Position numbers and translations under genes: made by a program. Under the pieces are notes generated by a model. It was not told the origin of the DNA, did not search any database, and saw only the letters and a program-made list of their open reading frames with translations. Positions 3,585 through 17,952 of a stretch of 32,000 bases of DNA are shown here, one piece after another. The stretch is from Pyrobaculum aerophilum str. IM2. GTDB taxonomy: Archaea; Thermoproteota; Thermoprotei; Thermoproteales; Thermoproteaceae. The stretch's first letter is position 1. The number at the start of each line of letters is the position of its first letter. The stretch covers positions 150,001-182,000 of the forward strand of contig NC_003364.1 of the NCBI RefSeq assembly GCF_000007225.1, written 5' to 3'.

Positions 3585-5069
3585 CTATTGCGGCCTGCGT
3601 CTCTTTATCAGCTTATCTACTGCGTATATTAAACCCAGTAGAACCGCCATTGTGATTATCTCGGCGTAGTAAACGCCGTCAAATCTCTTAACATAGCGGC
3701 CACCGCCAATGCCCGCGGAGTAGTAGTCTTCGTCTAAGACAAAGACCATGCCGTTGTCCCAGATCTTTACTCTGAACCCCTCGCACTTTGATTCCTCGGA
3801 GTACAAGCCGACGCCGCTTACGCCGGCTTTATTGCAGTATCTAATTAAGTACTCGCCTCCCTTTAACAACGGGACGTCCACTTTAGACCGCGGCGATAGA
3901 TAACTACACTTCGTCGGATAAATCTGGGCGTTAGCTATAGTGTATACAGTGACATATGCGGGTAACTCAGCCGACCTGCCCCAGAAGTCCACTGCATCTA
4001 TGCTGATCCATACGCCATCAAAGGGAATTTCCACATATACATTGGCGCCGTCGGAGACGGCTACTCTTCTGGGAATTGACTTGCCGCATAGTTCTATGTA
4101 TGCCCAATACCAGCCCGAGTGTACTTTCACGGGGCCGTAGAGGAGGCCGCGCGCAGACCCGATTCCCTCAACGCCGACATTCAGCAGGGAGACTCCCTCG
4201 ACCCCTCTGGCTATCACCGTGAGCGTTCCGTTCGGTACGTGGCTGTGCCTCCGCAAGACGGTCTTTGAGGGCATTAGGTACAGATTAAAGCCGTCAGTCC
4301 CCAGGTCATACAGCGCCGCGCCGTATATCTCCTCCTTCACGCCGCCGGGCTTTAAAACCACTATTTTGCCTTGCATTAATAAATAGACCACCCCGCCCCG
4401 CCCAAAACCTCTAGCCAAATAGTGCACCTCTCCCACAGGCCACAGAAGCGCCAATCCGCTACGCGTGACTTTATAAAGGCGCTCCTTTGTGATAAAATAG
4501 ACGCTGCCGTTAATATCCCTAATTAACTTCCCGTACCCCCTCACCTCCTTGACGTAAGCCACTTGCCAATTAGCAATGTAGTAAATTATGCTTTTATCTG
4601 CGTTGCTGCCCACAACAACGACGTCGCATCCCATGGCCTGCATGGAGTTCAAAAATGCCTCACTGGCGTTAAGTTCAAGCAGTCTTAACGCCTTTAAATC
4701 GGGGCTGAAGGCCCTCAGGCAGGCGCGGCTATGATTTCCGCTTAGGCTTATAACCTCGCCACATGCATATACCACGCTGTAAACTCTCTCTCCGGGCAAA
4801 TCCACGCTGCCGATCACCCCGCCGGGGGCCACGGCCAAAATTTGCGATCCGAACGGTATGTACAAGATATCTCCGCGCAACGCACAAGTCTCCTCTGCTG
4901 TCTCCGCGAAACCCTCTAGGTTGATGTAGCTTACTAAGGATAAATTCGCCCTATTGAAAAAAGAGATCTCAACGCCAGTGGTGTAGATAGTGTAGGAAAC
5001 TAAGTACTGATCTCCTACACACAACGCCAAGGCGAAAGCCGCCAAAAAGGAGATGGGCAACAGCCTCAT
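3585..5069 (-). CDS. Secreted, C-terminally membrane-anchored surface protein (beta-rich)
   Basis: 494-aa ORF with an N-terminal signal-like segment (MRLLPISFLAAFALALCVG). The C-terminal TM plus basic tail is AEIITMAVLLGLIYAVDKLIKRRRPQ. It has several N-x-S/T sequons. Its ATG overlaps the upstream gene's stop (ATGA at 5066-5069). Confidence 0.65.
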   Translation of the reverse strand: MRLLPISFLAAFALALCVGDQYLVSYTIYTTGVEISFFNRANLSLVSYINLEGFAETAEETCALRGDILYIPFGSQILAVAPGGVIGSVDLPGERVYSVVYACGEVISLSGNHSRACLRAFSPDLKALRLLELNASEAFLNSMQAMGCDVVVVGSNADKSIIYYIANWQVAYVKEVRGYGKLIRDINGSVYFITKERLYKVTRSGLALLWPVGEVHYLARGFGRGGVVYLLMQGKIVVLKPGGVKEEIYGAALYDLGTDGFNLYLMPSKTVLRRHSHVPNGTLTVIARGVEGVSLLNVGVEGIGSARGLLYGPVKVHSGWYWAYIELCGKSIPRRVAVSDGANVYVEIPFDGVWISIDAVDFWGRSAELPAYVTVYTIANAQIYPTKCSYLSPRSKVDVPLLKGGEYLIRYCNKAGVSGVGLYSEESKCEGFRVKIWDNGMVFVLDEDYYSAGIGGGRYVKRFDGVYYAEIITMAVLLGLIYAVDKLIKRRRPQ

Positions 5070-6367
5070 ACCAGGCCGAGCCTCCTCATTAGTAAAAACG
5101 CCGCAGCGCCGATCATAACCCCGGTCTCCATGTCGGAGAGGACAACTGTGGCATCACCGCCCGGAGGCAAAAATAAAGTTGCCTCAGATCTAATAGTCTC
5201 AAAAATAGCAAACAGCGCGTAGGTGTTCACAACAGTGATGTCATAACGGCCTGGCACCATTCCATCAAAATACAAACACGGCTTTTTTTCATTATATAAT
5301 TCTTGATTATTTATAAATATGTGTAATACTAATGATAATAATGATGTAATAGATAAATAACAGACTGTAAGTCTCGCCGGGCGATAAAGCCCCTTTCTCA
5401 CGACAACTACATATATTGTTTTATAATCTGATACGTCTTTGTACATTAAAATTAAATGCGTATTATTAGTATAAATGTCTACATAATAACGGTTACGTGG
5501 AATTACGTAGAAAGTAAAATTTCCCACCTGTCTCCCCTCGCTGTCTAACAAGAGGAGTTTATTCCGCCCATCGTAAGACATTAAGACGAGTATTGAGCCC
5601 TCCCCGTCTGAGGTGATCCACCATGGGAAGCCTCCTAATTCTACCTCTCTGGTCTTGTTGTCGCTTATAATCACCAGAGTACTTCCATTTAGGATATACA
5701 ATTTATTTTTTAAATAATATATTAATGGTATGCTATATTCTATAAAATGAAAATTGAAATTATAATTTTTTACTGTATTTTCTGTTACAACTGTAATTGT
5801 TGTGCCGTGGGAAATCATGACGCCGCTAGGCGTGGCCTTCACCCACCAAACATTATCTGAAAATCTCGCGGCGTATACTAGCGCCAAGTCGCTAATTCGC
5901 CTTATTTGAAACACAGCCCCATCCCCGTCTCTCCACGCTATATACAAATACCGGCTATCTTTGTCCACATAAATCTCGTTCCTAAAATCTAGATACCAAC
6001 CGCCGATCTTGGGCAAGTCCACGATTTTTTCTATTTTTAAAGTCTTGTTGTAGACATACGCCCTTTCCGCCGTCACGAGCACTAAGCGGTTACCGTCGGC
6101 GGCGCACGCATATACAGTTTCGTTTACAAAAACCTCGCCTAGCCTGTCCCCTACAAATGAGCGCACGTGCACCACCGATGCCAAAGGCGTAATCTCCACG
6201 ACGTACAGCCTAGACCCATCGGTGCAGACGTCTACTAAAATTGAATCCGAAAAAACCGTAATGAATTCAAGCCGCATCTCCACCACGCCGAACCCCCAAA
6301 TAGAAACGCCTAAAAGAGCCGCTAACAGCACGGCACGCCAATTCAACATACAACTGATGTGCAACAT
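5066..6367 (-). CDS. Secreted, C-terminally membrane-anchored surface protein (repeated beta-strand-rich, propeller-like segments)
   Basis: 433-aa ORF with an N-terminal hydrophobic segment (AVLLAALLGVSIWGFGV). Recurrent motifs are DG.RLYVV, DGNRLVLV, RYLYIAW.DGDG and EGSILVL. The C-terminal TM plus basic tail is GVMIGAAAFLLMRRLGLV. The central part of the gene is strikingly AT-rich. Confidence 0.6.
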   Translation of the reverse strand: MLHISCMLNWRAVLLAALLGVSIWGFGVVEMRLEFITVFSDSILVDVCTDGSRLYVVEITPLASVVHVRSFVGDRLGEVFVNETVYACAADGNRLVLVTAERAYVYNKTLKIEKIVDLPKIGGWYLDFRNEIYVDKDSRYLYIAWRDGDGAVFQIRRISDLALVYAARFSDNVWWVKATPSGVMISHGTTITVVTENTVKNYNFNFHFIEYSIPLIYYLKNKLYILNGSTLVIISDNKTREVELGGFPWWITSDGEGSILVLMSYDGRNKLLLLDSEGRQVGNFTFYVIPRNRYYVDIYTNNTHLILMYKDVSDYKTIYVVVVRKGLYRPARLTVCYLSITSLLSLVLHIFINNQELYNEKKPCLYFDGMVPGRYDITVVNTYALFAIFETIRSEATLFLPPGGDATVVLSDMETGVMIGAAAFLLMRRLGLV

Positions 6368-6805
6368 GCTTTAAATGTTATCTGCGACGTTGGCAGCGCT
6401 CCCCGGAATTATCCCAGACGGAATGCCAACGGGGCCTTCGCCCACATGCCACTTGTTTGAAGAGCGGCGACAGCCTCAAAACGCGATTACAGATCACATA
6501 GTCACTCGGCGGATGTGTTTAGCAATTGGCGGAAAGCCCAGATGAGCGGCTAAGGGAGCGCTTTGCCGTTGCCCAGTGACAGCAGTACCTCAGTTGCAGA
6601 GGGAGCGGTTTGAAGCCGCTAACAGGCTGCATTCCGAGCACTGAGCGGCCATGTGCGCATCGGCGTGTAAGACGCGGCAGCAGCTGGCTTGTCGCCTACT
6701 CAAGCTCCATGAGAAGATGAAAACACTGACAACTACATTACCCCGGCGAAAAAGGAACTTGAGCCAGGAGGCACGGCCTCCAGTTTAACATCTGCCGGGA
6801 GGAGT

Positions 6806-7399
6806 TCACGGATTTAAACACCCCAGGTGCGTATTGCGACGGCAGTCACCTCCTCGCCTAGATTGACCGAGTCTCTCCAAAGTGCGGATTGTCTGCAACG
6901 TGGCTACGGCGGATAGATAAGTGAGCAAATACCTAGCCCAGTTTAAAAAAGTCGTGTGGGGGTTATCGCCTATTGCCACCAGCGCCCAATTGGGCAACAA
7001 ATTGGCAAATTCGAGGGGGAGGTAGATCAGGTTTATAGCGTACTGCACCACAAAGGCGGCAATAACGCCTTTAACTCTCCAAAGCCTCCAAGAGGCCCAC
7101 AACAAGCCGAGCCAGGCCCAGCCCAAGACAAATAATATGGAGAGAAACGCCACGAAGAAGTGGGGATAGGCGAAGGACAGCGCCCACAAAACCGCCCCAA
7201 ACGCCAGGGCTGTGTGAAAATAGCGGCGGCACGTCATGAAGAGACACACGGCAGACACAATCGAGAAGGTGTACGCCACACTGGCGCGGATAAGCTGGGC
7301 AGGTCCCAAGGGAGGGAGTGACGCCGAGAAGAGGAAGAGGAGGCCGAGGGAAAAAAGACTACTGGATTTTAAGATAGAACCTCCCAACGCCCAACGCAT
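6806..7399 (-). CDS. Polytopic membrane protein (hypothetical)
   Basis: The ORF is open to 7486, but that extension overlaps the upstream 773-aa gene by 128 nt. I chose the ATG at 7399 (MRWALGG..) as the more plausible start; 7237 is also possible. There are 5-6 hydrophobic segments, e.g. AVLWALSFAYPHFFVAFLSILFVLGWAWLGLLW. Confidence 0.5.
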   Translation of the reverse strand: MRWALGGSILKSSSLFSLGLLFLFSASLPPLGPAQLIRASVAYTFSIVSAVCLFMTCRRYFHTALAFGAVLWALSFAYPHFFVAFLSILFVLGWAWLGLLWASWRLWRVKGVIAAFVVQYAINLIYLPLEFANLLPNWALVAIGDNPHTTFLNWARYLLTYLSAVATLQTIRTLERLGQSRRGGDCRRNTHLGCLNP

Positions 7400-9680
7400 A
7401 GGGCTCCAACGGGCCCGTGAAGTAGTTAGAGGTATCAAACATGGCATAGGAGAGGAAGTCCTCGTATATCCCGCTTCCCGGCGCAATGGTTTTAATACTG
7501 TGATAAAACGAGTGTTGAATTAACATCGAGAGCTTCACCTTAAGCCCTCCGGTGTAGGGCGGCAACTCATTTATACTCATTTTCCAGCCTGCCGCCTTTA
7601 TGTATCCAGTACCTGCGTCGTAGCCGTGAGAAATCCAATCCGACGACGGCGCACAATTTACATCGCCAGACACAGGCACCAGCATTGCAAATATGCCAAG
7701 CCCCCAAACCACATAGCCGAGAGGTCCTAAAAACGAGGGCATTGCCAGCCCGAAGATCTTACTTATCACAGCATAGCCTGTAATAGTGTTTCCAATCGCA
7801 TTAGTTACGGCGGCCACAATAGCGGCAAACGCCTCAAGCCACGGGTTCTGCCCCTCAACACTGACGTGAGTTGTCAATGAACCAACTGCGCCTTTCTTTA
7901 CGCTCTCAAACGCCAAGCACACCTTCTTAAGTTTAAGATACTGATCCAGGGGGATGTACTGTAGTGAAACTCTAGGAACTTCCGGAGTACGTTTGCCAAC
8001 ATCAGAGCCTGCTTGCGTAGCCAACACGGCATAGGCTAGTATGTAAACATCTGTCCATGGAGATATCGTCTCATTCTTTGGATCATACCCCGTAGACCAC
8101 ACTGAAAAGGCCAAATAATCTCTAAATACAATTGCAGGGGCTCTGTTTATATATACATATGTCCCCTGGTAATTTATCCAATTATTGGCGTTATGTCTCC
8201 ATATCTCTGGCCAGCGCTGGCCGTAGGCGAATAGGGATTTAAATGTCACAGCCACGTGGTATGGATAGCTGGCATAGAGGCTGGGGCTGAACTCCATGAT
8301 TAGCGGTATTACTGTGGAGTTGGCGGCGAGTAGAGGCACAATGGCAGATTCTGGTAGCGTCCCATAGATGTCATTGAAATAATAAGTGCCGCATTCAGCT
8401 GACGTGTATTTCTGCCCCGTGGCTGTAATGTAGGCGTTTGGATCCGCTGGCGTGTATATCTTCACAGTGAGGGTAGAGCTGGGGCTGCAGGCGACTACTG
8501 CCAGGCCTCTCAGCGCGACGTTTATGGGCATTTGGGCGCCTGGCGGAACTCTTACAGTAAAGAGGAGTCTAGATACCCTCACGCCGTAGCCGTAATCAGC
8601 TGAAAAGGCGTATCCCGGCTGGCCCACGGAGGAGAGCCAGTTTGCCGTGAGCAACGAATAGACGGAGCCGTCCTGGGGGGCGGGCCTGTTGTACACCACC
8701 GCTATAGAGGCGTTTACAGGGCGATTAGACGGGTTGTAGATCTCTGCGTAGAACCACAAATAGCTGTTGGCGTATGACGTCGCGCTTATGCGCGCCAATA
8801 GGTAGCGGCCGAAACTGGCTGCAGTCAGCGAGTTGCCCACGCAGGGGGGAGAGGTGGGAGACGCAGGGGGAGCGGGGGTGGGCGTGGAGTAGGGGCAGAG
8901 GTAGTAGCGGAAGGAGTTGCTAGATCCCCCTTGGATGGCCAGGTATATGTCAGAAACGCCGTGGCCTAAATACGCCCATGGAGTTGTGCCCATTACGAAG
9001 TCGTTGTCGGCATAGCCAGTGGCGTTAAAAAACCTCACAGGCGTATAGCTAGACGAACCGGCGTTTCTTGCGTTAATTGGCGACGCTGGGTTGAAGACGT
9101 ACCTCGCCCAACTGCTGACCACTGTGCCGCTCTTAGTCTCTGTGTAATACATCGGCTCCGCTTGACCTCCGGACTCGCCGAGTTGGGCGCTACCGCTTGC
9201 TTGGCCCTTAGGCGTTTTAGGCCTTCTGACGTCTAAGGGCTTGCCTTTGTAGTAATACCTCCCGCCCCTCTCCTCTGCATCTAAGTACACGTAGTAAGCC
9301 ACGGCGTTTGGAATCTCTGTGGCGTTTTTGGCGAAAACAACTCTGGCCACTCCCAAGCCCTCTATCTCTATGTCCACCACGTGCCCCTTCACGCCTGGCG
9401 GAAGCGCCGGCGGCCGCGGCGCGAAGTACTTTTTGGGTATGGCGAGGTATACGCCTTGCGGCAAGTACATGGTGGTGTTCAAGGCTCTTTCCTGCATTAT
9501 TACATCTCTTTCCACCATGATGTAGACAATGGGTACCGGCTCAACCGCTGTGGAGTTAATCACGACATAGGGAAAGCTGTCCCCCGGGCTTAACTCTACG
9601 AAGACATAGCTGGAAATATCCGCCGCTCTTAATATGGCTATTAACAACGCCGCCACTACTAGGACTCTTCTAGACAACAT
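7359..9680 (-). CDS. Large secreted protein with a Pro/Thr/Ser linker and hydrophobic C-terminal region (hypothetical, probably glycosylated)
   Basis: 773-aa ORF with an N-terminal signal peptide (MLSRRVLVVAALLIAILRAADIS). It has a PTPAPPASPTSPP linker and many N-x-S/T sequons. TM-like stretches lie near the C-terminus (AFAAIVAAVTNAIG.., YVVWGLGIFAMLVPV). No catalytic motif recognised. Confidence 0.7.
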   Translation of the reverse strand: MLSRRVLVVAALLIAILRAADISSYVFVELSPGDSFPYVVINSTAVEPVPIVYIMVERDVIMQERALNTTMYLPQGVYLAIPKKYFAPRPPALPPGVKGHVVDIEIEGLGVARVVFAKNATEIPNAVAYYVYLDAEERGGRYYYKGKPLDVRRPKTPKGQASGSAQLGESGGQAEPMYYTETKSGTVVSSWARYVFNPASPINARNAGSSSYTPVRFFNATGYADNDFVMGTTPWAYLGHGVSDIYLAIQGGSSNSFRYYLCPYSTPTPAPPASPTSPPCVGNSLTAASFGRYLLARISATSYANSYLWFYAEIYNPSNRPVNASIAVVYNRPAPQDGSVYSLLTANWLSSVGQPGYAFSADYGYGVRVSRLLFTVRVPPGAQMPINVALRGLAVVACSPSSTLTVKIYTPADPNAYITATGQKYTSAECGTYYFNDIYGTLPESAIVPLLAANSTVIPLIMEFSPSLYASYPYHVAVTFKSLFAYGQRWPEIWRHNANNWINYQGTYVYINRAPAIVFRDYLAFSVWSTGYDPKNETISPWTDVYILAYAVLATQAGSDVGKRTPEVPRVSLQYIPLDQYLKLKKVCLAFESVKKGAVGSLTTHVSVEGQNPWLEAFAAIVAAVTNAIGNTITGYAVISKIFGLAMPSFLGPLGYVVWGLGIFAMLVPVSGDVNCAPSSDWISHGYDAGTGYIKAAGWKMSINELPPYTGGLKVKLSMLIQHSFYHSIKTIAPGSGIYEDFLSYAMFDTSNYFTGPLEPYALGVGRFYLKIQ

Positions 9681-10079: not shown

Positions 10080-10505
10080 TTAGCCCCTGCGCGAGAGGTT
10101 AAACGGCTTTCCCTGTTGCAGAATCTTGTCAGCTATGTCGGGGGCCAGCCGCTTGAGGTCTTCGGCGACTGATTCCAGGAACTGTAGCTCTTCCTTTTCA
10201 TTTCTCAACTCGTCGGGGAGCATCCTCGGAATCTCCTCTATTATGGGGTACCAGCGGCCGCAGTTGGGGCAGTAAATCACCCCCGTCTCAATCTCCCACT
10301 TGTGGCACTCCTCGCACGGTAGGGTGTCCGGCTTGGGGTGCTCCTTTATTTTAAGGTCGCGGTAAGAGCAGTACTCCTCGCAGAAGGGCTTCCTGGGCCA
10401 GGTGTACTGCCTCTCGGGGTGCTCTGTGCGTTTTATCACCACAAGCCTCAGGGGGAAGGTCTTGTCGTAAGGGCAGGCCAAAACGTCCATGAGCCTGTAC
10501 TTCAT
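10080..10505 (-). CDS. Trm112/UPF0434-like zinc-ribbon protein with an inserted Cys-rich segment
   Basis: The N-terminus LMDVLACPYDKTFPL and the C-terminus IYCPNCGRWYPIIEEIPRMLPDEL match the split Trm112-type zinc ribbon (CP..C ... C..C..YPI..GIP.ML). The insertion carries CEEYC and CEEC. Confidence 0.65.
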   Translation of the reverse strand: MKYRLMDVLACPYDKTFPLRLVVIKRTEHPERQYTWPRKPFCEEYCSYRDLKIKEHPKPDTLPCEECHKWEIETGVIYCPNCGRWYPIIEEIPRMLPDELRNEKEELQFLESVAEDLKRLAPDIADKILQQGKPFNLSRRG

Positions 10506-10574
10506 AACACCCAGAATGCGAGTATTAATAAAAATTGTCTATGGGAGCCCTTTAGCCCTAAAGCCCGCCCACGA

Positions 10575-10967
10575 CTAGACGAATTTGCACTCAATCCCCT
10601 CTAGCCTAGCCGCGTTGCAAAGCCTCCCGTCCCCCGTTATTAACGCCGAATTTGTCTGGATGGCGGATACTATTTGAAGGGCATCTGCGATGTATAAGCC
10701 GTGTCTCTCTACGTATTTACTCGCCTCCAAGACTTGGCCTATTGTAAGCGGCAGTAACCTCATGGCGCCTAGCCTTGTCAGCCTCCTCACGTCTCCCAGC
10801 AACCTCTTTTTGAGGAGGGGGTATACCTCAAGCTTGCCGGCTCTCCTAGCGGCTTTGTGAATAGCGGAGAGGGCCTCTCCCACGTTGAATAAGTGTGTGT
10901 ATAACAACGCATCGCCGTTATAGGCGGAGATAAATATTTTCCTCACCTCCTCTAAACCCTTCTCCAT
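10575..10967 (-). CDS. PIN-domain-like (VapC-like) protein, atypical N-terminus
   Basis: The C-terminal two-thirds fit the PIN pattern: GEALSAI.., LYIADALQIVSA, ALITGDGRLCNAARLEGI. The usual first acidic residue in strand 1 is not evident (KIFISAY). A 32-codon ORF (10952-11050, MCRKKAERGQVQLDALRRFKALKDVVDQWRRV) overlaps the start and could be an antitoxin remnant. Confidence 0.45.
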   Translation of the reverse strand: MEKGLEEVRKIFISAYNGDALLYTHLFNVGEALSAIHKAARRAGKLEVYPLLKKRLLGDVRRLTRLGAMRLLPLTIGQVLEASKYVERHGLYIADALQIVSAIQTNSALITGDGRLCNAARLEGIECKFV

Positions 10968-11994
10968 TGATCTACTACATCTTTCAGCGCCTTGAATCGG
11001 CGCAGGGCGTCTAGCTGTACTTGACCCCTCTCCGCCTTCTTCCTACACATAATCCGTCCCCATCATTCTCAGTACTTTCTCCGTTCACTCGTCCTCTGTA
11101 TATACGACGAACTAAATGTCCTTATCACGACCTAGCTTAATGGTATATTACTGGGAGCCCCCTGTCTACGCCAGTTCCGTCTCTCTGTTCAAAAACTACG
11201 GCGACAAGCACTTTTTAAAACACAGCGCTTCTCACGGCTCAACGTCCGTGAAAACCCTGAGTTTAAAAGGAATGGGAAAAACTATAACTCGCTTTTTGTA
11301 GTTTACCGCAAGCGTTGCCAATATTGCAAATAAAGCTAGCAATAAGCCATCTGTCGGTTATCAACACGCCCATTCGTAGACATGCTCTCAGCAACATACA
11401 TTTTGTCGGCTATAGATTCAGTCGTCATCTCTACAGCGGCAAGGAGTTTGTAGCTTATGTCCCAGCGATCTACAACATCTATTCAAATAGTCCTCTCCTC
11501 CGATTTTTCTCGCCGTAAATTAACCTCCAGCCGGCCCACTCTTTAATGTGCAGAAGACGACCAGGTAAATCCCTCAGCGTTGGTACACTCATGCAATATC
11601 GCTACCTCCTTCTCAACAACGCCTCTAGCTTAACCTCAGTAGTTTGTCACTGACATATGTGCTTTTGCGACACATGAAGTTTTGCCTGACGGCTTACAGA
11701 TAGCACAAGCATATCGCTAAGAGCACAAAAGGGATTTTGATATCTGCTAACTCGCCGCTTCTCAGGGGCACTACAATGTCTACCGGGCGTCTCTCTAGCG
11801 CATGTCATGTGGCGTATATCTCCATTACTCTGCGCCAAGTCTGGACATAGGTGTAACCACAGCCAGCTCCACCGTTGGAACACTAAATGTGTAGCGCCAA
11901 AATTGTTAAAACGTCGGGACCCGACTCCTCATCCGCTTCAAGTCATATTAGATAGTTTTTCACATGATGGAGGATAAAAAAGAGCAACGCCTTG

Positions 11995-12159
11995 TTAAAT
12001 GCCTATCCCTATGCCAATAACAATAGAAAGAGTTAATAAAATAAAGAGGAGTAACCTAATAGGGAGCCTAGGGGCATAGAGCTCTTTGTAGACATAAAGA
12101 AGGAGGGCTTGCCATAAGAACAGGGCCCCTGTTGTAAAGACTTGATTAACTAGATCCAT
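11995..12159 (-). CDS. Small hydrophobic peptide (54 aa), last gene of the radical-SAM operon (not in the supplied ORF track)
   Basis: My own translation is MDLVNQVFTTGALFLWQALLLYVYKELYAPRLPIRLLLFILLTLSIVIGIGIGI*. The ATG at 12159 overlaps the 3' end of the rSAM gene by 14 nt. It has two TM-like segments. It lies in AT-rich DNA, where long open frames are less expected by chance. Confidence 0.3.
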   Translation of the reverse strand: MDLVNQVFTTGALFLWQALLLYVYKELYAPRLPIRLLLFILLTLSIVIGIGIGI

Positions 12160-13159
12160 GTGCCTTTGTTGGTAACATACTTTTATCTGTTGACGGCAAT
12201 ATCTCCCTCAACAATTCGTCTTTGATATTTAACAGCTTATCTCTATATTTTGTCCCGGCCAGATAGCAGACTTCACATGGGTGTAACACCTCATCTTCCA
12301 TATTCAGCTTCTTCATCAAGGCGGCTGGCCCCTTTACTCTAAGATACCACGCAAGGATGTGGCGATTTAGTCTCGCAACGATAACTTCTAGCGATTCATT
12401 TTTTATATTGCCTACCACAAAGAGAGGCCTTGCTTCTGTATTTATAGCATGACCGCAACAGAAGGTTATATCGCCGTTTGGGTGTACTACAATCTTAGCT
12501 ACAGCATCGACACAGCCTACACCTTCTTTTGGTCGATTTGTCTGAGATATTGCGCCACGGGGTATTTTAAATCTGGCTCTGCCTAATGGGGCGGGGAAAT
12601 CTTCAGTAACTATGACGTTGGTCAAACCAGCCTCATCCAGCTTTGATCTGATACGGTCATAATCAGGTTGTCCATCATCTACAGCAAGCTTGATCGTTCC
12701 CACCACTACGTCAAGACCTAACTCCACCGCCGCCCTTGCTGCGTTTACCACATTGGTAAACCCGCCAAATCTCTGAAGATGCGGCAAGTGAAATCTATCA
12801 AAACTGATATTCAGCTCCCTTAGGCCCAATGTAGCAAGTTCTTCCAGAAATTTTCTTGCTCTTTCGTAAGTCGAAGCCCACCACGCATTAGTGACAAGTC
12901 TTGTAACAAAGCCTAGATCCGCGGCGAGCTTTATCCCACGCTTAAGATGTTCTGGGAATAAAGTAGGCTCACCGCCGGTAAAAACCACTACTTTAATTGA
13001 GGGAATCCAATAAGCCTCTCTGATGACTTTCTCTAAATAATCCAACTCAAGAACGGTGAACTCACGTGGTGACGACCCTATGCTACAGTGGTCACATTCA
13101 AAATTGCATTTGTAACTATACATGAAGACTAGAGTATCGGGAATTGCGAAAAAAGACAT
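12146..13159 (-). CDS. Radical SAM enzyme with a SPASM/twitch-like C-terminal Cys-rich extension
   Basis: CNFECDHC is the CxxxCxxC cluster motif at residues 18-25, and FTGGEPTL is the GGE motif. The C-terminal part reads GCVDAV..VHPNGDITFCCGH..VVGNIKNESLEVIV..HPCEVCY. It has five Cys and the 'GN-I/L-x-x-x-S-L' pattern typical of peptide/protein-modifying SPASM-family maturases. Confidence 0.85.
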   Translation of the reverse strand: MSFFAIPDTLVFMYSYKCNFECDHCSIGSSPREFTVLELDYLEKVIREAYWIPSIKVVVFTGGEPTLFPEHLKRGIKLAADLGFVTRLVTNAWWASTYERARKFLEELATLGLRELNISFDRFHLPHLQRFGGFTNVVNAARAAVELGLDVVVGTIKLAVDDGQPDYDRIRSKLDEAGLTNVIVTEDFPAPLGRARFKIPRGAISQTNRPKEGVGCVDAVAKIVVHPNGDITFCCGHAINTEARPLFVVGNIKNESLEVIVARLNRHILAWYLRVKGPAALMKKLNMEDEVLHPCEVCYLAGTKYRDKLLNIKDELLREILPSTDKSMLPTKAHGSS

Positions 13160-13416
13160 TATACTCCTTTATAAGTTAACGAAATGTGATATATGGCAGG
13201 CGCCACGACAACCGCATATACCCATACCGCTACTGCGTGCCAGACGGCACCTACCATGTTAACTACGCCGGCTACGTTGAAGAAAACATACAAGTTTAGC
13301 TCAACCCAAGTATTTACAGAAGTAGAGCCATATTCAAGTGGTTTAGCGAACTCGGCGCTATGGTATAGCAATAAGTTTTCTTTTATATCTAAGTCTGCTA
13401 TTAAGTGCAATATCAT
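13159..13416 (-). CDS. 85-aa hydrophobic small protein/peptide (possible rSAM substrate or membrane partner)
   Basis: Its start overlaps the upstream stop (ATGA at 13413-13416) and its stop overlaps the rSAM ATG (TAATG at 13157-13161). It has a polar N-terminal ~40 aa followed by a hydrophobic, Trp/Val/Ala-rich C-terminal half (NVAGVVNMVGAVWHAVAVWVYAVVVAPAIY). It contains no Cys. Confidence 0.5.
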   Translation of the reverse strand: MILHLIADLDIKENLLLYHSAEFAKPLEYGSTSVNTWVELNLYVFFNVAGVVNMVGAVWHAVAVWVYAVVVAPAIYHISLTYKGV

Positions 13417-13982
13417 AGCTCTTCGCCACTCTTATTATCCGGCCCTCTTGTTGCCTCTCCGTAATATACACGCATTATGATATCTACTGTTCTCACAACT
13501 TTTTGCTTTTTCTCTTTTAGCGCCTTGTCTCTAACTTCACTAAGATATTCCTTAGGCGTATGCTTTCTTTCAATTTCACCCATTACGTGTTCTGTATCGT
13601 CACCAATTCCTATGAATCTGGCTTTATCTCCTTCCTCAAACACAGCAACTGAGGGCTGCAATATAGTCTGGTTTGCATGTTTTACAACCCAGGCATGCAA
13701 GACATATGCCTTGCCCTTATAATTGGTCACATGGATTACGGCTTTCGTAACATTTGCTACGTGGCTACGTTTTTCATCAACTTCTTTAATTTCTACACAG
13801 TAACCTTCCCCGGAAAGTTCATTGGCCCTAGGCGCATAGGCTAACGCCATTAATGGATTAAGGCTTATTGCTAACAGGAAGGAAGCGCTTATATTTGCTA
13901 GGAACTCTCTACGCTTGATTAATTCCTCGAAGTTCTTTATCTCCCTTAATTTATTTTGAGTATTTCGTGTAGGCTGGGACAT
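13413..13982 (-). CDS. Tat-signal-bearing exported protein (hypothetical)
   Basis: 189-aa ORF with a twin-arginine motif KRREFLANISASFLLAISLNPLMALAYA, followed by a ~130-aa soluble domain with a single Cys (GEGYCVEIK). It is the first gene of the coupled operon. Confidence 0.65.
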   Translation of the reverse strand: MSQPTRNTQNKLREIKNFEELIKRREFLANISASFLLAISLNPLMALAYAPRANELSGEGYCVEIKEVDEKRSHVANVTKAVIHVTNYKGKAYVLHAWVVKHANQTILQPSVAVFEEGDKARFIGIGDDTEHVMGEIERKHTPKEYLSEVRDKALKEKKQKVVRTVDIIMRVYYGEATRGPDNKSGEEL

Positions 13983-14492
13983 AAGCTTTTTTTTCCTGTA
14001 TTTTTAAGCCTTATGCTGTTAAACATACCGTGTTACTATAAGGGGTTATTGGTCGTAATTTCCGTATATGTTTTGATAGGGCTTATTAACTATATAATTA
14101 TTGCGTCCCCAGCCCCGCTCGTTCTAAAAATCTTTATCATCTCTATATCTTCGGGGGCGTCTCTTCAGATTTTCCTCTGGATTCCGAAAGAGGCATATGT
14201 GAAGGAAGGGGGAGTGCTATTAATGGGACTAGTGCGTAGGAAGTTTATCCCGGGAGAGGTCATGGAGGAGTATACATACGAGGAAGTCAGACGAAGGATC
14301 TCGTTCGTACCTGTTGGGAATAGGGTTATTTTACACTGCTTTTTCTGGGGCCTATACGGGAGCTTTCAGAGACGCAACGGGGAGTGGGTTAGTGTGGACG
14401 TCTATGCCGGGAGAGACTGCAAGGGCAAGTGGCTTTTGCTTAAAAAACGGGGGCAGGAGAAGTACCTCTTAGTCTGTCCCGGCAACACATGA
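13956..14492 (+). CDS. Hypothetical membrane protein (three TM segments plus a ~90-aa soluble C-terminal domain); start uncertain
   Basis: 178-aa ORF. The N-terminal hydrophobic part is encoded in AT-rich DNA and the C-terminal part (from MGLVRRKF.. at 14223) in GC-rich DNA. Alternative starts are 14013 and 14223. Its stop overlaps the CPBP ATG (ATGA at 14489-14492). Confidence 0.45.
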   Translation: MSISCRLGHKLFFPVFLSLMLLNIPCYYKGLLVVISVYVLIGLINYIIIASPAPLVLKIFIISISSGASLQIFLWIPKEAYVKEGGVLLMGLVRRKFIPGEVMEEYTYEEVRRRISFVPVGNRVILHCFFWGLYGSFQRRNGEWVSVDVYAGRDCKGKWLLLKKRGQEKYLLVCPGNT

Positions 14493-15313
14493 TTTTGTTC
14501 TTCCTGACGGCGTTTGGGCTTGGGTGGCTCTTTCAGCTACTCGCCGCGTACAGCCCCTTCTGGCTCGCCGCAACTATGTGGACGCCCGCGCTGGGAGCCT
14601 TGCTTGAGCTGAAGAGGGAGGGTAGGCTTAAGCCCAGGCCGTTCGGCGATGACTGGCGGGGCTTAAAAACACTTTACAAAGCTACAGCCCCGGCGGCGTT
14701 TTGGGTGGCGTTGTCGTGTCTAATGTCGTTTTTCTTCGTGGGCCCCAATCCCTATACTCCCCCGACGGTCCGCGTGTATTTTCTCGTGCCAGTGGAAGCC
14801 CCCGGCTGGGTTGTATACGCCGCGCTCCCCCTAGCTCTGGCGGCCCCTTTCATAAACGCCCTTATTGTCACCTTCGGCGAGGAGTTCGGCTGGCGCGGTT
14901 ATCTCCTCCCAAAGCTGGCTAGGAGAATGGGCTGGATCTGGGCCTCCGCGGTCGTTGGCGTCGTGTGGGGCGTGTTGCACACGCCGGCAATTCTCGTCGT
15001 TGGTCACAATTACGGGCGGCCGTGGTGTTTAGAGTGTCTCAGGGCCTTTGTCCTTTTGACACTACCTATGTCTTTCCTCCACACTTGGGCATATTTGAAA
15101 TACGGCGTTTGGGGAGCCGCCTTTCTCCACGGCGCAGTTAACGGCTGGGCTGGAGCCTACTTCCTCCTCTATTCACACACCTTTGGCAACTTAGTGTGGA
15201 GCATAACAGGGCTATACGGTGCCGCCACTTTGGCGGCCACAGCCGCCGTGTTCTGGCTTCTCGCAAACCCCACGGCACGGGGGAACAAAGCGGTTTTCAA
15301 AAACCAGGTGTAA
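14489..15313 (+). CDS. CPBP-family (CAAX protease / Abi-type) intramembrane glutamic metalloprotease
   Basis: Polytopic membrane protein with the three family motifs in order: EEFGWRGYLLP (EExxxR), VWGVLH (FxxxH-like) and FLHGAVNG (HxxxN). Confidence 0.8.
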   Translation: MILFFLTAFGLGWLFQLLAAYSPFWLAATMWTPALGALLELKREGRLKPRPFGDDWRGLKTLYKATAPAAFWVALSCLMSFFFVGPNPYTPPTVRVYFLVPVEAPGWVVYAALPLALAAPFINALIVTFGEEFGWRGYLLPKLARRMGWIWASAVVGVVWGVLHTPAILVVGHNYGRPWCLECLRAFVLLTLPMSFLHTWAYLKYGVWGAAFLHGAVNGWAGAYFLLYSHTFGNLVWSITGLYGAATLAATAAVFWLLANPTARGNKAVFKNQV

Positions 15314-15678: not shown

Positions 15679-16145
15679 TAACGCACTAAAGGATTGGAAT
15701 GGTAAAGCGTTTTAGATGGCCCGTACTGCCGGGCGAGAAAGACAGCAAAGCGGCTTGACTACACCACAGGATGTGCGATATGACAAAAGCGGCTGTCGCT
15801 GAGTACTGAGAGAAGTACGCCGACCCGTTAATTAGAGAGTACGACTTGAGGAGGATCTTTTGGTGGAACGGAGAGCGGCGCGGAAAGCCGATGTCGTGTT
15901 TTGTAACGGAGAAAAGTCGGTATGCAAGATGGGCAACAAGATGGCCGCATTTACGGATTTGACACACCCCATGACGTGTACCTCAGACCCGAAATCAAGT
16001 TCGTTGACGAGTGGATCAAGGTGGCCCACAGGGGCGATAAGAGGCGACGCGTAGAAAAGTAGCAGCTCATGCAGTATGTGATCACCTTATCCTTCCAAAC
16101 GGAGGCTGTGCAGACAAGTGACGGCATCACTGTAGCCTGAGTCAA
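15679..16145 (+). pseudogene. Decayed copy of the paREP2a-like gene (inverted relative to the intact copy at 17482-17952)
   Basis: Nucleotide and protein similarity to the 156-aa ORF runs along its length. For example, ggaaagccgatgtcgtgttttgtaacggagaaaag matches gggaagccgatgtcgtgtttcgtcacggagaaaaag, and ..FRWPVLPGE.., ..CDMTKAAVAEY*EKYADPLIREYDLRRIFWWNGERRGKPMSCFVTEK.. match the intact protein. The copy is broken by in-frame TGA stops and a 1-nt deletion in an A-run (A5 -> A4) near 15913. The short ORFs 15686-15967, 15832-16029, 15860-16054 and 15951-16145 are fragments or shadows of it. Confidence 0.7.
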
Positions 16146-16201: not shown

Positions 16202-16417
16202 TTAAAGCCTCATTTCTCTAATTAGGCGGGATGCCGGCAGTCCTAAGTCCACTGGGTCGAAGTCCAGCTCTTCAGCGGCGACTGGGATTTCGCCGAAGTA
16301 CTCCCTTAGTATTCTCTCCAACAACTCCGATACGTCCACTCCCTCCCGGGCCGCCTCTTCTTTAAGCCTTTTCCAAACAGAGGCGTCTATGTAAATACTA
16401 GTGCGGATTTTCTCCAC
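16202..16417 (-). CDS. Ribbon-helix-helix (CopG/antitoxin-like) DNA-binding protein
   Basis: 71-aa ORF. TSIYIDASVWKRLKEEAAREGVDVSELLERILREYF fits the strand-helix-helix RHH pattern. It has an acidic/hydrophobic C-terminal tail like VapB-type antitoxins. It lies 31 bp downstream of the TGT-like gene on the same strand. Confidence 0.7.
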   Translation of the reverse strand: MEKIRTSIYIDASVWKRLKEEAAREGVDVSELLERILREYFGEIPVAAEELDFDPVDLGLPASRLIREMRL

Positions 16418-16448: not shown

Positions 16449-17366
16449 TTAGCGCCGAGCGGCGGCCACTTGGAGGTATAGTTTTCTAAACGCTGGCGCT
16501 CTAGGCGTCTGGGACCAGGACTTCACCACTACCCACGCGTTGACCAAGGCCCTGTATTCAAAACTTGTCCTTATACGCTCGTAAAAGCCGTCCAGCGCCG
16601 GGAAGCCGGTTTCCATAAGAAAGCGGTAGAGCTCTTCTAACTCGCCGTCTTTTGGCTTCGCCTTTCCGAAGCTCACCGCGCGGCTCGTCACGTGCCTCTC
16701 CCCGCCGCCGGGCAGTATCACTTTGCCGTAAGCCGCCTTGAGGCGCCACGTGGCGCTGTCAGTGCTCTGAATTCCCATGGCGTGTAATATAGGCGTCACA
16801 GAGGGGCTTCCCATGCCCAGGACGTGGATTGGGCCTTTAAACTCCCTCCGCGCGATGCTAATTAGCCTCAAGGCCAGCTCCCTCGAGCCGCGGGGGACGC
16901 CCCTGGTAGTTAAGACGTAGGGAACGGCGCCACCAATGGCGAGAGCCGGGGCGTCTGAATACTTCCTTAAGTATTTTAAGAAGAGCCCCTCCTCTCTGTA
17001 TACGTGGAGCACCGGCACAACTATATCGCCTAGCGCCCTCCTCAGCCTCTCCCAGTTTTTATACGACTTTTCAAACTTTTTCTCAGCCACCTCGAGGGGG
17101 TCGCTCGGCGACGGCGGGACGTCTAGGGAGAAGTACAGCTGGGCGTCTACTCTGCGGTATATCTCCGCTATTTTGTCCACGTCCACTGTAAGGCCTTTTT
17201 TCAAAATTTGATAGCCCCCCGAGTCAATCCACAGCTCCCCCTCAAATCCCAACGCAGACCTGGGGTCTCTCTTCACCTCAAGGGCGTTTACCATTACAGC
17301 CGGGACGTGGAAATACAGCCACGGCCTCGGCACTGCGTTGAGAGGCGTGCCCAGCACAACCTTCAC
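16449..17366 (-). CDS. TGT-family (queuine/archaeosine tRNA-ribosyltransferase-like) catalytic-core-only paralog; DpdA-like candidate
   Basis: 305-aa ORF with a GTG start. The motifs, in order, are WIDSGGYQILKKG, YFSLDVPPSP, ALAIGGAVP and PIHVLGMGSPSV..GIQSTDSATWRLKAAYGKVILPGG. These parallel the archaeal TGT motifs DSGSFQ, LDIPTPP, PIGGVVP and HLFGAGHP..DLFDSASY as I recall them. The protein has no cysteine at all, so it cannot form the Zn site. It has no C-terminal PUA or tRNA-binding domains. Confidence 0.8.
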   Translation of the reverse strand: MKVVLGTPLNAVPRPWLYFHVPAVMVNALEVKRDPRSALGFEGELWIDSGGYQILKKGLTVDVDKIAEIYRRVDAQLYFSLDVPPSPSDPLEVAEKKFEKSYKNWERLRRALGDIVVPVLHVYREEGLFLKYLRKYSDAPALAIGGAVPYVLTTRGVPRGSRELALRLISIARREFKGPIHVLGMGSPSVTPILHAMGIQSTDSATWRLKAAYGKVILPGGGERHVTSRAVSFGKAKPKDGELEELYRFLMETGFPALDGFYERIRTSFEYRALVNAWVVVKSWSQTPRAPAFRKLYLQVAAARR

Positions 17367-17481: not shown

Positions 17482-17952
17482 TCAACTCCTGCCGAATTCA
17501 TCACGTATGCCCCACTTCCCCCAGTTATAAACTTGTGGGGCGAAACGGATAATAAGCCAGTCGCCATACCTGCCTTGACTGTCATCGCCCCTGGGGGCCA
17601 CTTTTATCCAGTCGTTCACAAGCTTGATTTCAGGCCTGAGGTATACGCCGTGGGGCGTGTCAAATACGTAAAACGCGGCCATTTTTTCTCCCACCTTGCA
17701 TACGGCCTTTTTCTCCGTGACGAAACACGACATCGGCTTCCCTCTCCATTCTCCCTCCCACCAGAAGGCCCTCCTAAGGGCGTATTCGCTGATTAGCGGT
17801 TCGGCGTATTTCTCCCCGTACTCAGCAATTGCGGTCTTTGCCATTTCGCACATGTCGTAATACAGTTCAAGCATTCTCACTACTTTCCCCTCCTCCCCTG
17901 GCAGGATAGGCCATCTGAAGCATCTGCGGTACCAGTCCTTTAACGCGGCCAT
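17482..17952 (-). CDS. paREP2a-like repeat-family protein (intact copy)
   Basis: 156-aa ORF with balanced composition. A decayed paralogous copy lies at 15679-16145. It is arranged divergently with the 408-aa gene across an 80-bp spacer, as I recall for P. aerophilum paREP2a/2b pairs. The family name is from memory. Confidence 0.6.
   Translation of the reverse strand: MAALKDWYRRCFRWPILPGEEGKVVRMLELYYDMCEMAKTAIAEYGEKYAEPLISEYALRRAFWWEGEWRGKPMSCFVTEKKAVCKVGEKMAAFYVFDTPHGVYLRPEIKLVNDWIKVAPRGDDSQGRYGDWLIIRFAPQVYNWGKWGIRDEFGRS

Follow-up and report, generated by a model that had tools for sequence, protein, structure and literature searches.

Epipeptides have been described as confined to Bacillota (PMC13012085). 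Their epimerase, the radical S-adenosylmethionine (SAM) enzyme EpeE, carries a single auxiliary cluster, located in an extended twitch domain, and uses Cys223 as the hydrogen-atom donor that quenches the Cα radical on the face opposite to SAM (PMC13012085). Many radical-SAM epimerizations are also found in polytheonamide, where they lead to a membrane-spanning beta-helix channel (PMC8326336). Here, we describe a gene cassette of Pyrobaculum aerophilum str. IM2 that is compared with these systems. The cassette lies in a window of 32,000 nucleotides (nt), that is, the whole stretch of DNA that was analyzed (NC_003364.1, positions 150,001 to 182,000; positions below are those of the window), and includes four minus-strand open reading frames (ORFs) encoding a protein of 189 amino acids (aa) with a twin-arginine translocation (Tat) signal, an 85-aa peptide, a 337-aa radical-SAM enzyme, and a 54-aa hydrophobic membrane protein. 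Related contigs compared with the window are labeled L0xx.

We best read this locus as a new epipeptide-like system producing a peptide that is synthesized ribosomally and modified after translation (RiPP). That the cassette is of the RiPP type and that the 85-aa peptide is its substrate, with the chemistry left free, appears highly probable; for the fuller reading, in which the EpeE-like enzyme epimerizes this peptide, we estimate a probability of roughly 0.6. The initial annotation of the window had proposed a RiPP-like or protein-maturation module, with a SPASM-type radical-SAM enzyme acting on a co-encoded peptide or on a Tat substrate, and this proposal is supported by both the kinship of the enzyme and the retention of the peptide gene next to its homologs. 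The choice of substrate, which had been left between the Tat protein and either of the small peptides, can be narrowed, as the 85-aa peptide displays a precursor signature, whereas the 189-aa and 54-aa proteins do not.

The radical-SAM enzyme and its kinship to EpeE

The 337-aa protein (AAL62686; 12146-13159, minus strand), recognized by ORF calling and by Pfam and NCBIfam searches as a radical-SAM enzyme with a twitch/SPASM-type auxiliary-cluster domain, is annotated in the database as "metallo cofactor biosynthesis protein, conjectural", and the 189-, 85-, and 54-aa ORFs are recorded as hypothetical proteins. All motifs initially read from its translation are present, namely, YKCNFECDHC, which contains the CxxxCxxC radical-SAM cluster motif (C18, C22, C25; 13085-13108, minus strand; seen in the sequence and the family alignment), TGGEPT, VVGNIKNESL, and the C-terminal cysteines 216, 234, 235, 295, and 298. 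Searches with hidden Markov models (HMMs) confirmed the assignment to the radical-SAM/SPASM enzymes, with both the Radical_SAM (PF04055; E = 8e-17) and SPASM (E = 7e-6) models of Pfam exceeding their cut-offs. The top match in NCBIfam is the YydG peptide epimerase model TIGR04078 (E = 7e-30; 104.5 bits, below the equivalog cut-off), which is twenty orders of magnitude ahead of the next match and aligns residues 9-291 of the protein with 2-272 of the 309 model positions. By contrast, the MoaA, PqqE, NirJ, anSME, and AlbA models cover the N-terminal core only (1e-4 to 1e-10; MoaA, PqqE, and NirJ at 1e-7 to 1e-10), with MoaA scoring 38 bits against a cut-off of 284, PqqE 33 against 381, and NirJ 20 against 515. 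Thus, rather than grouping with the radical-SAM enzymes of cofactor biosynthesis, a placement that the initial annotation had regarded as fatal to its proposal, the enzyme matches YydG/EpeE over nearly its full length.

The same relationship was recovered in comparisons with proteins of known structure. The profile of the 35-member enzyme family matched EpeE/YydG (8AI1) in the PDB over the whole length at 2.3e-37, with the runner-up at 3.6e-9, and the window enzyme, searched as a single sequence, had EpeE as its sole match (8e-22). With the AlphaFold (AF2) model of the enzyme, for which the predicted local distance difference test (pLDDT) score is 89, Foldseek placed nine EpeE chains on top (E = 1e-18 to 3e-17; template modeling [TM] scores of 0.72-0.80), with alignments of ~330 columns (8AI1-8AI6), followed by BlsE and SkfB at 1e-9.

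In the 35-sequence family alignment, C216, C234, C235, C295, and C298 are invariant and the CxxxCxxC motif is nearly so. Four of these cysteines, C216, C234, C295, and C298, line up with cysteines of EpeE in the profile alignment and, taken with the Pfam SPASM match and the fold match, predict an auxiliary [4Fe-4S] cluster in an extended twitch (T-SPASM) domain. The Cys234-Cys235 pair (12455-12460, minus strand), which occupies invariant columns, is aligned with Cys222-Cys223 of EpeE, and the correspondence of C235 to the hydrogen donor C223 is found in profile and pairwise alignments alike. As judged from these relationships, the enzyme represents a sister family of EpeE/YydG that probably, although not certainly, shares its chemistry.

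A small peptide with the features of a RiPP precursor

The candidate precursor peptide (AAL62687; 13159-13416, minus strand; ORF call) was initially described as lacking Cys and as consisting of a polar N-terminal half and a hydrophobic C-terminal half, which proved accurate. The N-terminal half is acidic, and the C-terminal core of ~42 residues (13159-13290) contains 52% Val+Ala+Ile, 2% Leu, 17% Trp/Tyr/Phe, and no Cys. A small ORF separates the Tat-protein gene from the enzyme gene in related loci, the rearranged L074 excepted; in every case missed by the HMM, it was found by translating the 200-300-nt gap between the two genes. The 41 distinct peptides are 65-103 aa long, with an acidic N-terminal part (net charge of 0 to -5) and a core of ~40 residues composed of 25% V, 19% A, 8.6% I, and 6.6% L. 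For comparison, the adjacent CPBP protein contains 13.9% L and 8.3% V, and the 54-aa family contains 17.8% L.

The majority of the leaders open with a common motif, such as MREFELDHDVDPVEV, IDRFLLPQTIDVLKL, LDKFLTNRDVDLL, or LDNFLLTPEE. Across six loci of the MNLDNFLL subfamily, pairwise identity is 90-96% for the enzyme, 74-99% for the Tat protein, and 82-100% for residues 1-22 of the peptide, and drops to 23-59% for the last 45 residues of the peptide. Such a combination of a conserved leader with a hypervariable core corresponds to the classical signature of RiPP precursors and would be hard to square with a structural membrane subunit. Because of this signature, the 85-aa protein, and not the 189-aa or 54-aa protein, is the likely precursor.

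The composition of the peptides bears on the chemistry as well. Given that the window peptide contains no Cys, thioether formation of the sactipeptide or ranthipeptide type is excluded for it on sequence grounds; many other peptides of the family are likewise Cys-free. Because some cores are nearly devoid of aromatic residues (2% in L048), aromatic cross-linking is not the family-wide function. Across the 41 loci, core aromatics are enriched at i,i+2 (z = 3.7, uncorrected for kinship), as in WSW, WVWVW, and YTYTYT, and depleted at spacings 1 and 3. Val and Ala show a weak excess at spacings 4, 6, and 7 in a statistic that ignores sequence kinship, and the period-2 Val/Ile pattern expected of alternating D/L residues was not found in the cores; the spacing analysis as a whole is ambiguous.

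A second, 79-aa precursor copy (phmmer 1.4e-15 to the first) was observed in L025 from Desulfothermobacter acidiphilus (9362-9601), where it is located between the ABC exporter gene and a bPH_5 gene and is uncalled in the record.

A conserved six-gene unit and its recurrence

The four minus-strand ORFs and the stop/start junctions that chain them were verified by reading the sequence: ATGA at 13416-13413, TAATG at 13161-13157, and a 14-nt overlap at 12146-12159. The 85-aa gene is therefore translationally coupled at both ends, by ATGA on one side and TAATG on the other. A run of six Ts (11976-11981, minus strand), which lies 14-19 nt past the stop of the 54-aa gene, may be an oligo-T terminator of the archaeal type that ends the operon. 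The region of the cassette is low in GC (0.41-0.46 vs. about 0.53).

The initial description of a four-gene operon stands with respect to the four ORFs, which are real and coupled, but the conserved unit consists of six genes (11995-15313), as seen from synteny with L024. In a BLASTN comparison with this contig (enzyme 85% identical; DNA about 79%), window positions 12062-15280 align and nothing beyond does, so that the shared block comprises the four minus-strand ORFs and a divergent pair, 14013-14492 and 14489-15313. All six genes are under purifying selection relative to L024, with ratios of nonsynonymous to synonymous substitution rates (dN/dS) of 0.09 for the radical-SAM enzyme, 0.27 for the 85-aa peptide, 0.19 for the Tat-signal protein, 0.22 for the 54-aa protein, 0.07 for the divergent membrane protein, and 0.14 for the CPBP protease. 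The purifying selection identifies the 85-aa and 54-aa ORFs as real genes. The 30-nt intergenic gap between the divergent genes is A/T-rich and contains TTAAAAATA (14007-13999); a leaderless promoter at this sequence was considered and set aside, given that the spacing to the ATG misfits a simple leaderless model, and no promoter is claimed.

Searches with the enzyme detected 106 homologs, including homologs at 40-52% identity in Pyrobaculum, Thermoproteaceae, Desulfotomaculum, Desulfothermobacter acidiphilus, Ammonifex degensii, and unclassified Bacillota, and at about 33% identity in Bathyarchaeota. Contig look-ups combined with a metagenome scan contributed 85 more loci, over the ORFs of which the HMMs were iterated. 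The order of Tat-protein gene, small ORF, and enzyme gene is repeated in 45 loci of Thermoproteales (Pyrobaculum and Thermoproteaceae) and thermophilic Bacillota (Desulfothermobacter, Desulfotomaculum, and Ammonifex). As the proposal of the initial annotation requires, the small ORFs are kept beside the enzyme homologs, the 65-103-aa ORF together with the Tat-protein gene in these 45 loci and the 54-aa ORF in its own subclade. The cassettes come in two gene orders. In the order seen in the window, the genes for the CPBP protease and a membrane protein are divergent from those for the Tat protein, the peptide, the enzyme, and a 49-54-aa protein; in the other, the Tat protein, the peptide, the enzyme, a 177-225-aa membrane protein with a pleckstrin homology (PH)-like domain, and the CPBP protease are encoded co-linearly. 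The bacterial versions carry insertions of one or two bPH_5 proteins (Pfam, 2.5e-19) and a gene for an ATP-binding cassette (ABC) exporter of 576-590 aa, and no ABC exporter was found in any of the archaeal-type loci examined. Enzyme relatives of ~30% identity from Thorarchaeota, Bathyarchaeia, and Anaerolineae, retrieved in a single-sequence scan of genome contigs, lack the Tat-protein and peptide partners and mark the boundary of the subfamily.

Several loci deserve separate mention. L069, which was skipped by the Tat-protein HMM, encodes a KRREFL protein and a 72-aa peptide. In the metagenome contig L073 (86-5005), the pair of enzyme and downstream protein is present in three tandem copies followed by a single CPBP gene, and in L074, the Tat-protein gene leads straight into the downstream protein, through either cassette recombination or an assembly artifact. 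L087 (4541-7816) and L088 (4508-7815) encode enzyme relatives of ~35% identity beside a 148-160-aa protein, followed by a 588-aa ABC exporter. The middle part of the 148-160-aa protein (ENPEKALEVAGL...) resembles, as judged by eye, the Nif11/nitrile-hydratase-type leaders of RiPPs; EpeE-like enzymes may, in the light of these two loci, serve several precursor families.

The twin-arginine partner

The 189-aa protein (AAL62688; 13413-13982, minus strand; ORF call) possesses the twin-arginine signal noted at the outset, with KRREFL (R24 R25) followed by uncharged residues and, at about residues 46-50, by ALAYA. Its N-terminus, IKRREFLANISASFLLAISLNPLMALAYA, matches the RR consensus and contains an h-region without charges and a cleavage site of the AxA type. 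The combination of RR-x-[FLA]-[LI], an uncharged stretch, and an A-x-A-like site is found in 33 of the 39 distinct family members. Six members deviate: L074, which has a single R-to-S change (KRSELL), and the bacterial-type L025, L049, L068 (two copies), and L096, such that the RR pair is wholly lost in bacterial-type loci only and L074 is the only archaeal-type exception. An ABC exporter gene (576-590 aa) accompanies the RR-less proteins in L025, L049, and L068, and none was detected in L096. This correlation, although weak, suggests that the Tat signal is of importance to loci without an ABC exporter.

The family is rare: an exhaustive search found 49 representative clusters among 1.84 billion, and 3 homologs were retrieved by word-index search and 15 with a profile. 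No match was obtained in Pfam, NCBIfam, PHROG, or PADLOC. The AF2 model (pLDDT 72) combines a long helix at the N-terminus with six strands and two confidently predicted C-terminal helices, with the mature domain of ~140 aa predicted to form a six-stranded sheet followed by the two helices. The only invariant or nearly invariant residues are P43, P110, E131, and R164 (numbering of the full-length protein; the family alignment starts past Met1, so that numbers there are one lower). Because no target motif is conserved, the Tat protein is unlikely to be the substrate of the enzyme. Its gene always precedes the peptide gene, which it overlaps by ATGA in the window. That the Tat protein serves as an export escort is possible, if somewhat doubtful.

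Membrane proteins as candidates for processing and immunity

The gene divergent from the Tat-protein gene encodes a membrane protein of 159 aa (14013-14492, plus strand; supported by synteny and dN/dS), or of 178 aa if the ORF starts at the TTG at 13956, with N-terminal transmembrane segments. It has no match in Pfam, bPH_5 (PF10882) included, and its comparison by hhalign with the bPH_5-positive neighbors of other loci is weak (40% probability, E = 3e-4); the C-terminal domain may be PH-like (bPH_5-like), and the protein would likely function in immunity or membrane protection. The 177-225-aa downstream family of other loci is related to bPH_5 (hhalign 92%, E = 6e-7). The adjoining gene (AAL62690; 14489-15313, plus strand) encodes a 274-aa CPBP/Rce1-like (Abi) intramembrane glutamic protease (PF02517, 4.9e-15; 56 bits vs. 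a cut-off of 22.4), named CPBP family intramembrane glutamic endopeptidase in RefSeq, which would be the sole candidate for a leader protease in the cassette.

In both gene orders, the cassette is accompanied by CPBP/Abi and PH-domain membrane proteins. In Bacillus, membrane proteins with a PH domain (YdbS/YdbT) confer protection against a bacteriocin-like compound. Abi/CPBP proteins have been implicated in bacteriocin self-immunity (Kjos 2010, PMC2849437, as cited in PMC8692603). By analogy, the constant presence of the two kinds of genes fits a membrane-active product, and both may confer immunity.

The 54-aa hydrophobic membrane protein (AAL62685; 11995-12159, minus strand; ORF call), with two hydrophobic segments, has homologs of 49-54 aa that are equally placed in the subclade devoid of the downstream PH-like protein. 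The possibility that it is a remnant of the 177-225-aa downstream protein was rejected, as hhalign detected no relation between the two and tblastn found no remnant in 10500-12200. By hhalign, the 54-aa family shows no similarity to the divergent protein of the window either.

Proposed mechanism and alternative explanations

We propose that the 85-aa protein would be a precursor with an acidic N-terminal leader and a ~40-residue core rich in Val, Ala, Ile, Trp, and Tyr. The 337-aa enzyme would bind SAM at the C18/C22/C25 cluster and abstract Cα hydrogens from core residues, with Cys235 returning hydrogen on the opposite face, as in EpeE, and converting L- into D-residues; Val, Ile, and Ala are the likely targets. 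The product would be a very hydrophobic, membrane-active peptide. The leading guess for the 189-aa partner is a stoichiometric escort that would keep the peptide soluble and carry it through the Tat pathway; alternatively, it might process or sequester the peptide outside the cell. The CPBP protease, the divergent membrane protein, and the 54-aa protein could participate in peptide processing and/or protection of the producer. A bolder version, in which epimerization at many positions of the ~40-residue Val/Ala/Trp-rich core creates a gramicidin- or polytheonamide-like beta-helical membrane channel exported from the archaeal cell as the passenger of a dedicated Tat escort (a "hitchhiker"), defining a new class of ribosomal peptides common to hyperthermophilic Crenarchaeota and thermophilic Bacillota, seems unlikely.

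Several observations weigh against the EpeE-like reading. The 104.5-bit score to TIGR04078 lies far under the 300-bit equivalog cut-off, so that the enzyme is not an equivalog; its identity to EpeE is about 22%; and Asp210 of EpeE, the residue mutated in 8AI6, aligns with Lys222 in a column that is variable in the family. Chemistry often differs among homologous radical-SAM enzymes. As for the peptide, the core of the window is conserved in its two close relatives, so that its hypervariability is borrowed from a sister subfamily; the window leader (MILHLIADLDIKEN...) bears no significant resemblance to those of the other subfamilies (leader-only HMM, E = 0.2), and the full-length match to them (1e-6) is driven by core composition; the peptide alignments contain no common leader-cleavage motif; and the hydrophobic half of the 85-aa protein could be a plain transmembrane hairpin. 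With regard to the Tat protein, the model has no fold match in the PDB (best E = 0.33) and the role is a guess; three to four bacterial members without RR still keep the N-terminal region; and in some P. aerophilum sequences, such as the 99.6% identical metagenome contig L029, the start codon is ACG instead of ATG (window 13981, L029 position 438). Because of this ACG start, some P. aerophilum records are of 145 aa, beginning at Met45 without the signal; the ACG may represent a natural knock-down variant or a non-canonical start.

These observations leave room for the same cassette and precursor with another radical reaction, such as a C-C or C-O cross-link at Trp/Tyr or a modification of Val side chains. 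Besides the low identity to EpeE, the score under the family cut-off, and the non-conservation of D210, the i,i+2 enrichment of core aromatics and their depletion at spacings 1 and 3 speak for such chemistry, as does the chemical diversity of SPASM/twitch radical-SAM enzymes (PMC8326336). However, the hydrogen-donor Cys-Cys pair is invariant, EpeE is nearer than any cross-linking enzyme by about nine orders in sequence and fold searches, the aromatic spacing statistic is uncorrected for kinship, and Val/Ala/Ile content is the only universal feature of the cores, some of which are nearly free of aromatics and many free of Cys; we consider this alternative fairly unlikely. Under another scheme, the enzyme matures the 189-aa protein before export, in the manner of anSME and sulfatases or of QhpD/QhpC, and the 85- and 54-aa proteins are membrane accessories. 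Tat substrates fold or undergo modification before export, the Tat signal is conserved, and the 189-aa gene is always part of the cassette. Nevertheless, the Tat protein has no conserved Cys, Ser, or other target motif, the closest relative of the enzyme modifies a small peptide, the leader and hypervariable core reside in the small ORF while the Tat protein stays 74-99% identical, and L025 harbors a second copy of the peptide without a second Tat protein, making maturation of the Tat protein improbable.

Finally, the cassette could be a membrane-protein module for envelope stress or transport, with the small proteins being structural and the enzyme acting on an unrelated substrate, such as a lipid or cofactor. 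Membrane proteins do make up most of the products, the 85-aa protein could span the membrane as a hairpin through its hydrophobic half, a weak recurrence of Val and Ala is seen at spacings 4, 6, and 7, and the enzyme bears the GenBank label "metallo cofactor biosynthesis protein, conjectural". Yet cofactor and lipid radical-SAM families match the N-terminal core only (1e-5 to 1e-10), identities of 23-59% next to partners above 90% are abnormal for structural subunits, the core is poor in Leu, contrary to the transmembrane proteins encoded alongside, and the bacterial versions include a dedicated ABC exporter; this explanation is highly improbable. An epimerizing RiPP cassette, with the 85-aa peptide as precursor, is thus the reading that we favor.

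Borders and surroundings of the cassette

At the borders of the cassette, we found no tRNA, no Rfam family, and no flanking direct or inverted repeats of at least 16 nt. A viral or defense origin was rejected, as close viral loci are lacking and the matches in PHROG and PADLOC are to the generic radical-SAM core only. Toxin-antitoxin genes adjoin the cassette in both the window and L024 (337-985), with the flanks being otherwise unrelated; just outside the cassette, the window encodes a PIN-domain protein (10575-10967; Pfam, 1e-11) and a Trm112-like zinc-ribbon protein (10080-10505). From the PIN gene to the 54-aa gene, a stretch of ~1 kb (10968-11994) is free of ORFs exceeding 78 aa, of tRNAs, and of Rfam matches; it is 99.6% conserved in L029 and missing from L024.

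On the other side, an inverted repeat of ~280 nt (15771-16050 / 17572-17853), composed of two segments (145 nt with 79% and 101 nt with 80% complementarity), encloses a 71-aa ribbon-helix-helix-like ORF (16202-16417) and a tRNA-ribosyltransferase-like gene (16449-17366). One arm falls within a 156-aa ORF (17482-17952), and the other resembles a decayed copy of the C-terminal part of that ORF. Elsewhere in the window, a further low-GC stretch (4500-6500; 0.40-0.46) spans a 433-aa ORF (5066-6367) and the end of a 494-aa ORF (3585-5069), and a 773-aa ORF (7359-9680), with an N-terminal signal-like segment and a C-terminal hydrophobic region, possibly encodes a large surface protein.

Significance and comparison with described systems

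To our knowledge, few RiPPs are known from Archaea. No published description of the cassette was found in the literature by accession, organism, or topic, and NCBIfam contains no model for any accessory protein of any of the subfamilies; the analysis defines three uncatalogued protein families, those of the precursor, of the Tat-signal partner, and of the 54-aa protein. With a mobile and conserved EpeE-like cassette in both Pyrobaculum and thermophilic Bacillota, epipeptide-type enzymology would extend across domains, and heat-stable enzymes for the introduction of D-amino acids could become available. The hypervariability of the hydrophobic cores suggests that strains in hot habitats are engaged in an arms race in which the peptides act as archaeocins. 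The strict conservation of the Tat-signal partner, in turn, poses the question of how a very hydrophobic peptide is exported from a cell without a dedicated ABC exporter; a Tat "hitchhiker" route, if true, has not been described for RiPPs.

Among the systems to which the cassette can be compared, class II bacteriocin loci share with it a CPBP (Rce1-like) protease gene beside a hydrophobic secreted peptide. However, class II bacteriocins are unmodified and rely on double-glycine leaders and ABC transporters, whereas the cassettes described here encode a radical-SAM maturase and, in their archaeal versions, no ABC exporter. The anSME/sulfatase and QhpD/QhpC pairs are similar in that a SPASM-type radical-SAM gene adjoins the gene of a twin-arginine protein, but the 189-aa protein has neither the C/S-x-P-x-R motif nor a Cys-rich target motif, and the enzyme is distant from anSME (Foldseek E = 2e-8 vs. 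1e-18 for EpeE). The proteusins, with the PoyA precursor and the PoyD epimerase of polytheonamide, resemble the cassette in the long hydrophobic, Val/Ala-rich core, and polytheonamide might be the best functional analogy for the fate of the 40-residue Val/Ala core. Proteusin epimerases are nevertheless unrelated to EpeE (PMC8326336), and the precursors described here lack the nitrile-hydratase-like leader and are accompanied by no methyltransferases or other tailoring enzymes.

The closest counterpart is the epeXEPAB (yydFGHIJ) locus of Bacillus subtilis, the EpeE/YydG protein of which (8AI1-8AI6) is the nearest relative of the enzyme by both sequence and predicted fold. It differs in several respects: the enzymes are ~22% identical, with the window enzyme falling under the TIGR04078 cut-off and not keeping D210; EpeX consists of 49 aa with a 17-residue core, compared to the 65-103 aa and ~40-residue Val/Ala-rich core of the peptides described here; the archaeal cassettes have no EpeP-type protease or EpeAB transporter, and the window contains no EpeX-like 49-aa precursor; a Tat-signal protein, a CPBP protease, PH-like membrane proteins, and a 54-aa protein are present in addition; and the host is a hyperthermophilic crenarchaeon. 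The similarities comprise a radical-SAM cluster combined with one predicted auxiliary cluster in a twitch/SPASM-type domain, the retained Cys-Cys pair that includes Cys223 in EpeE, and the placement of the enzyme gene beside that of a small precursor (EpeX/YydF in B. subtilis) with Val and Ile in the core, the known product of the B. subtilis locus being membrane-active.

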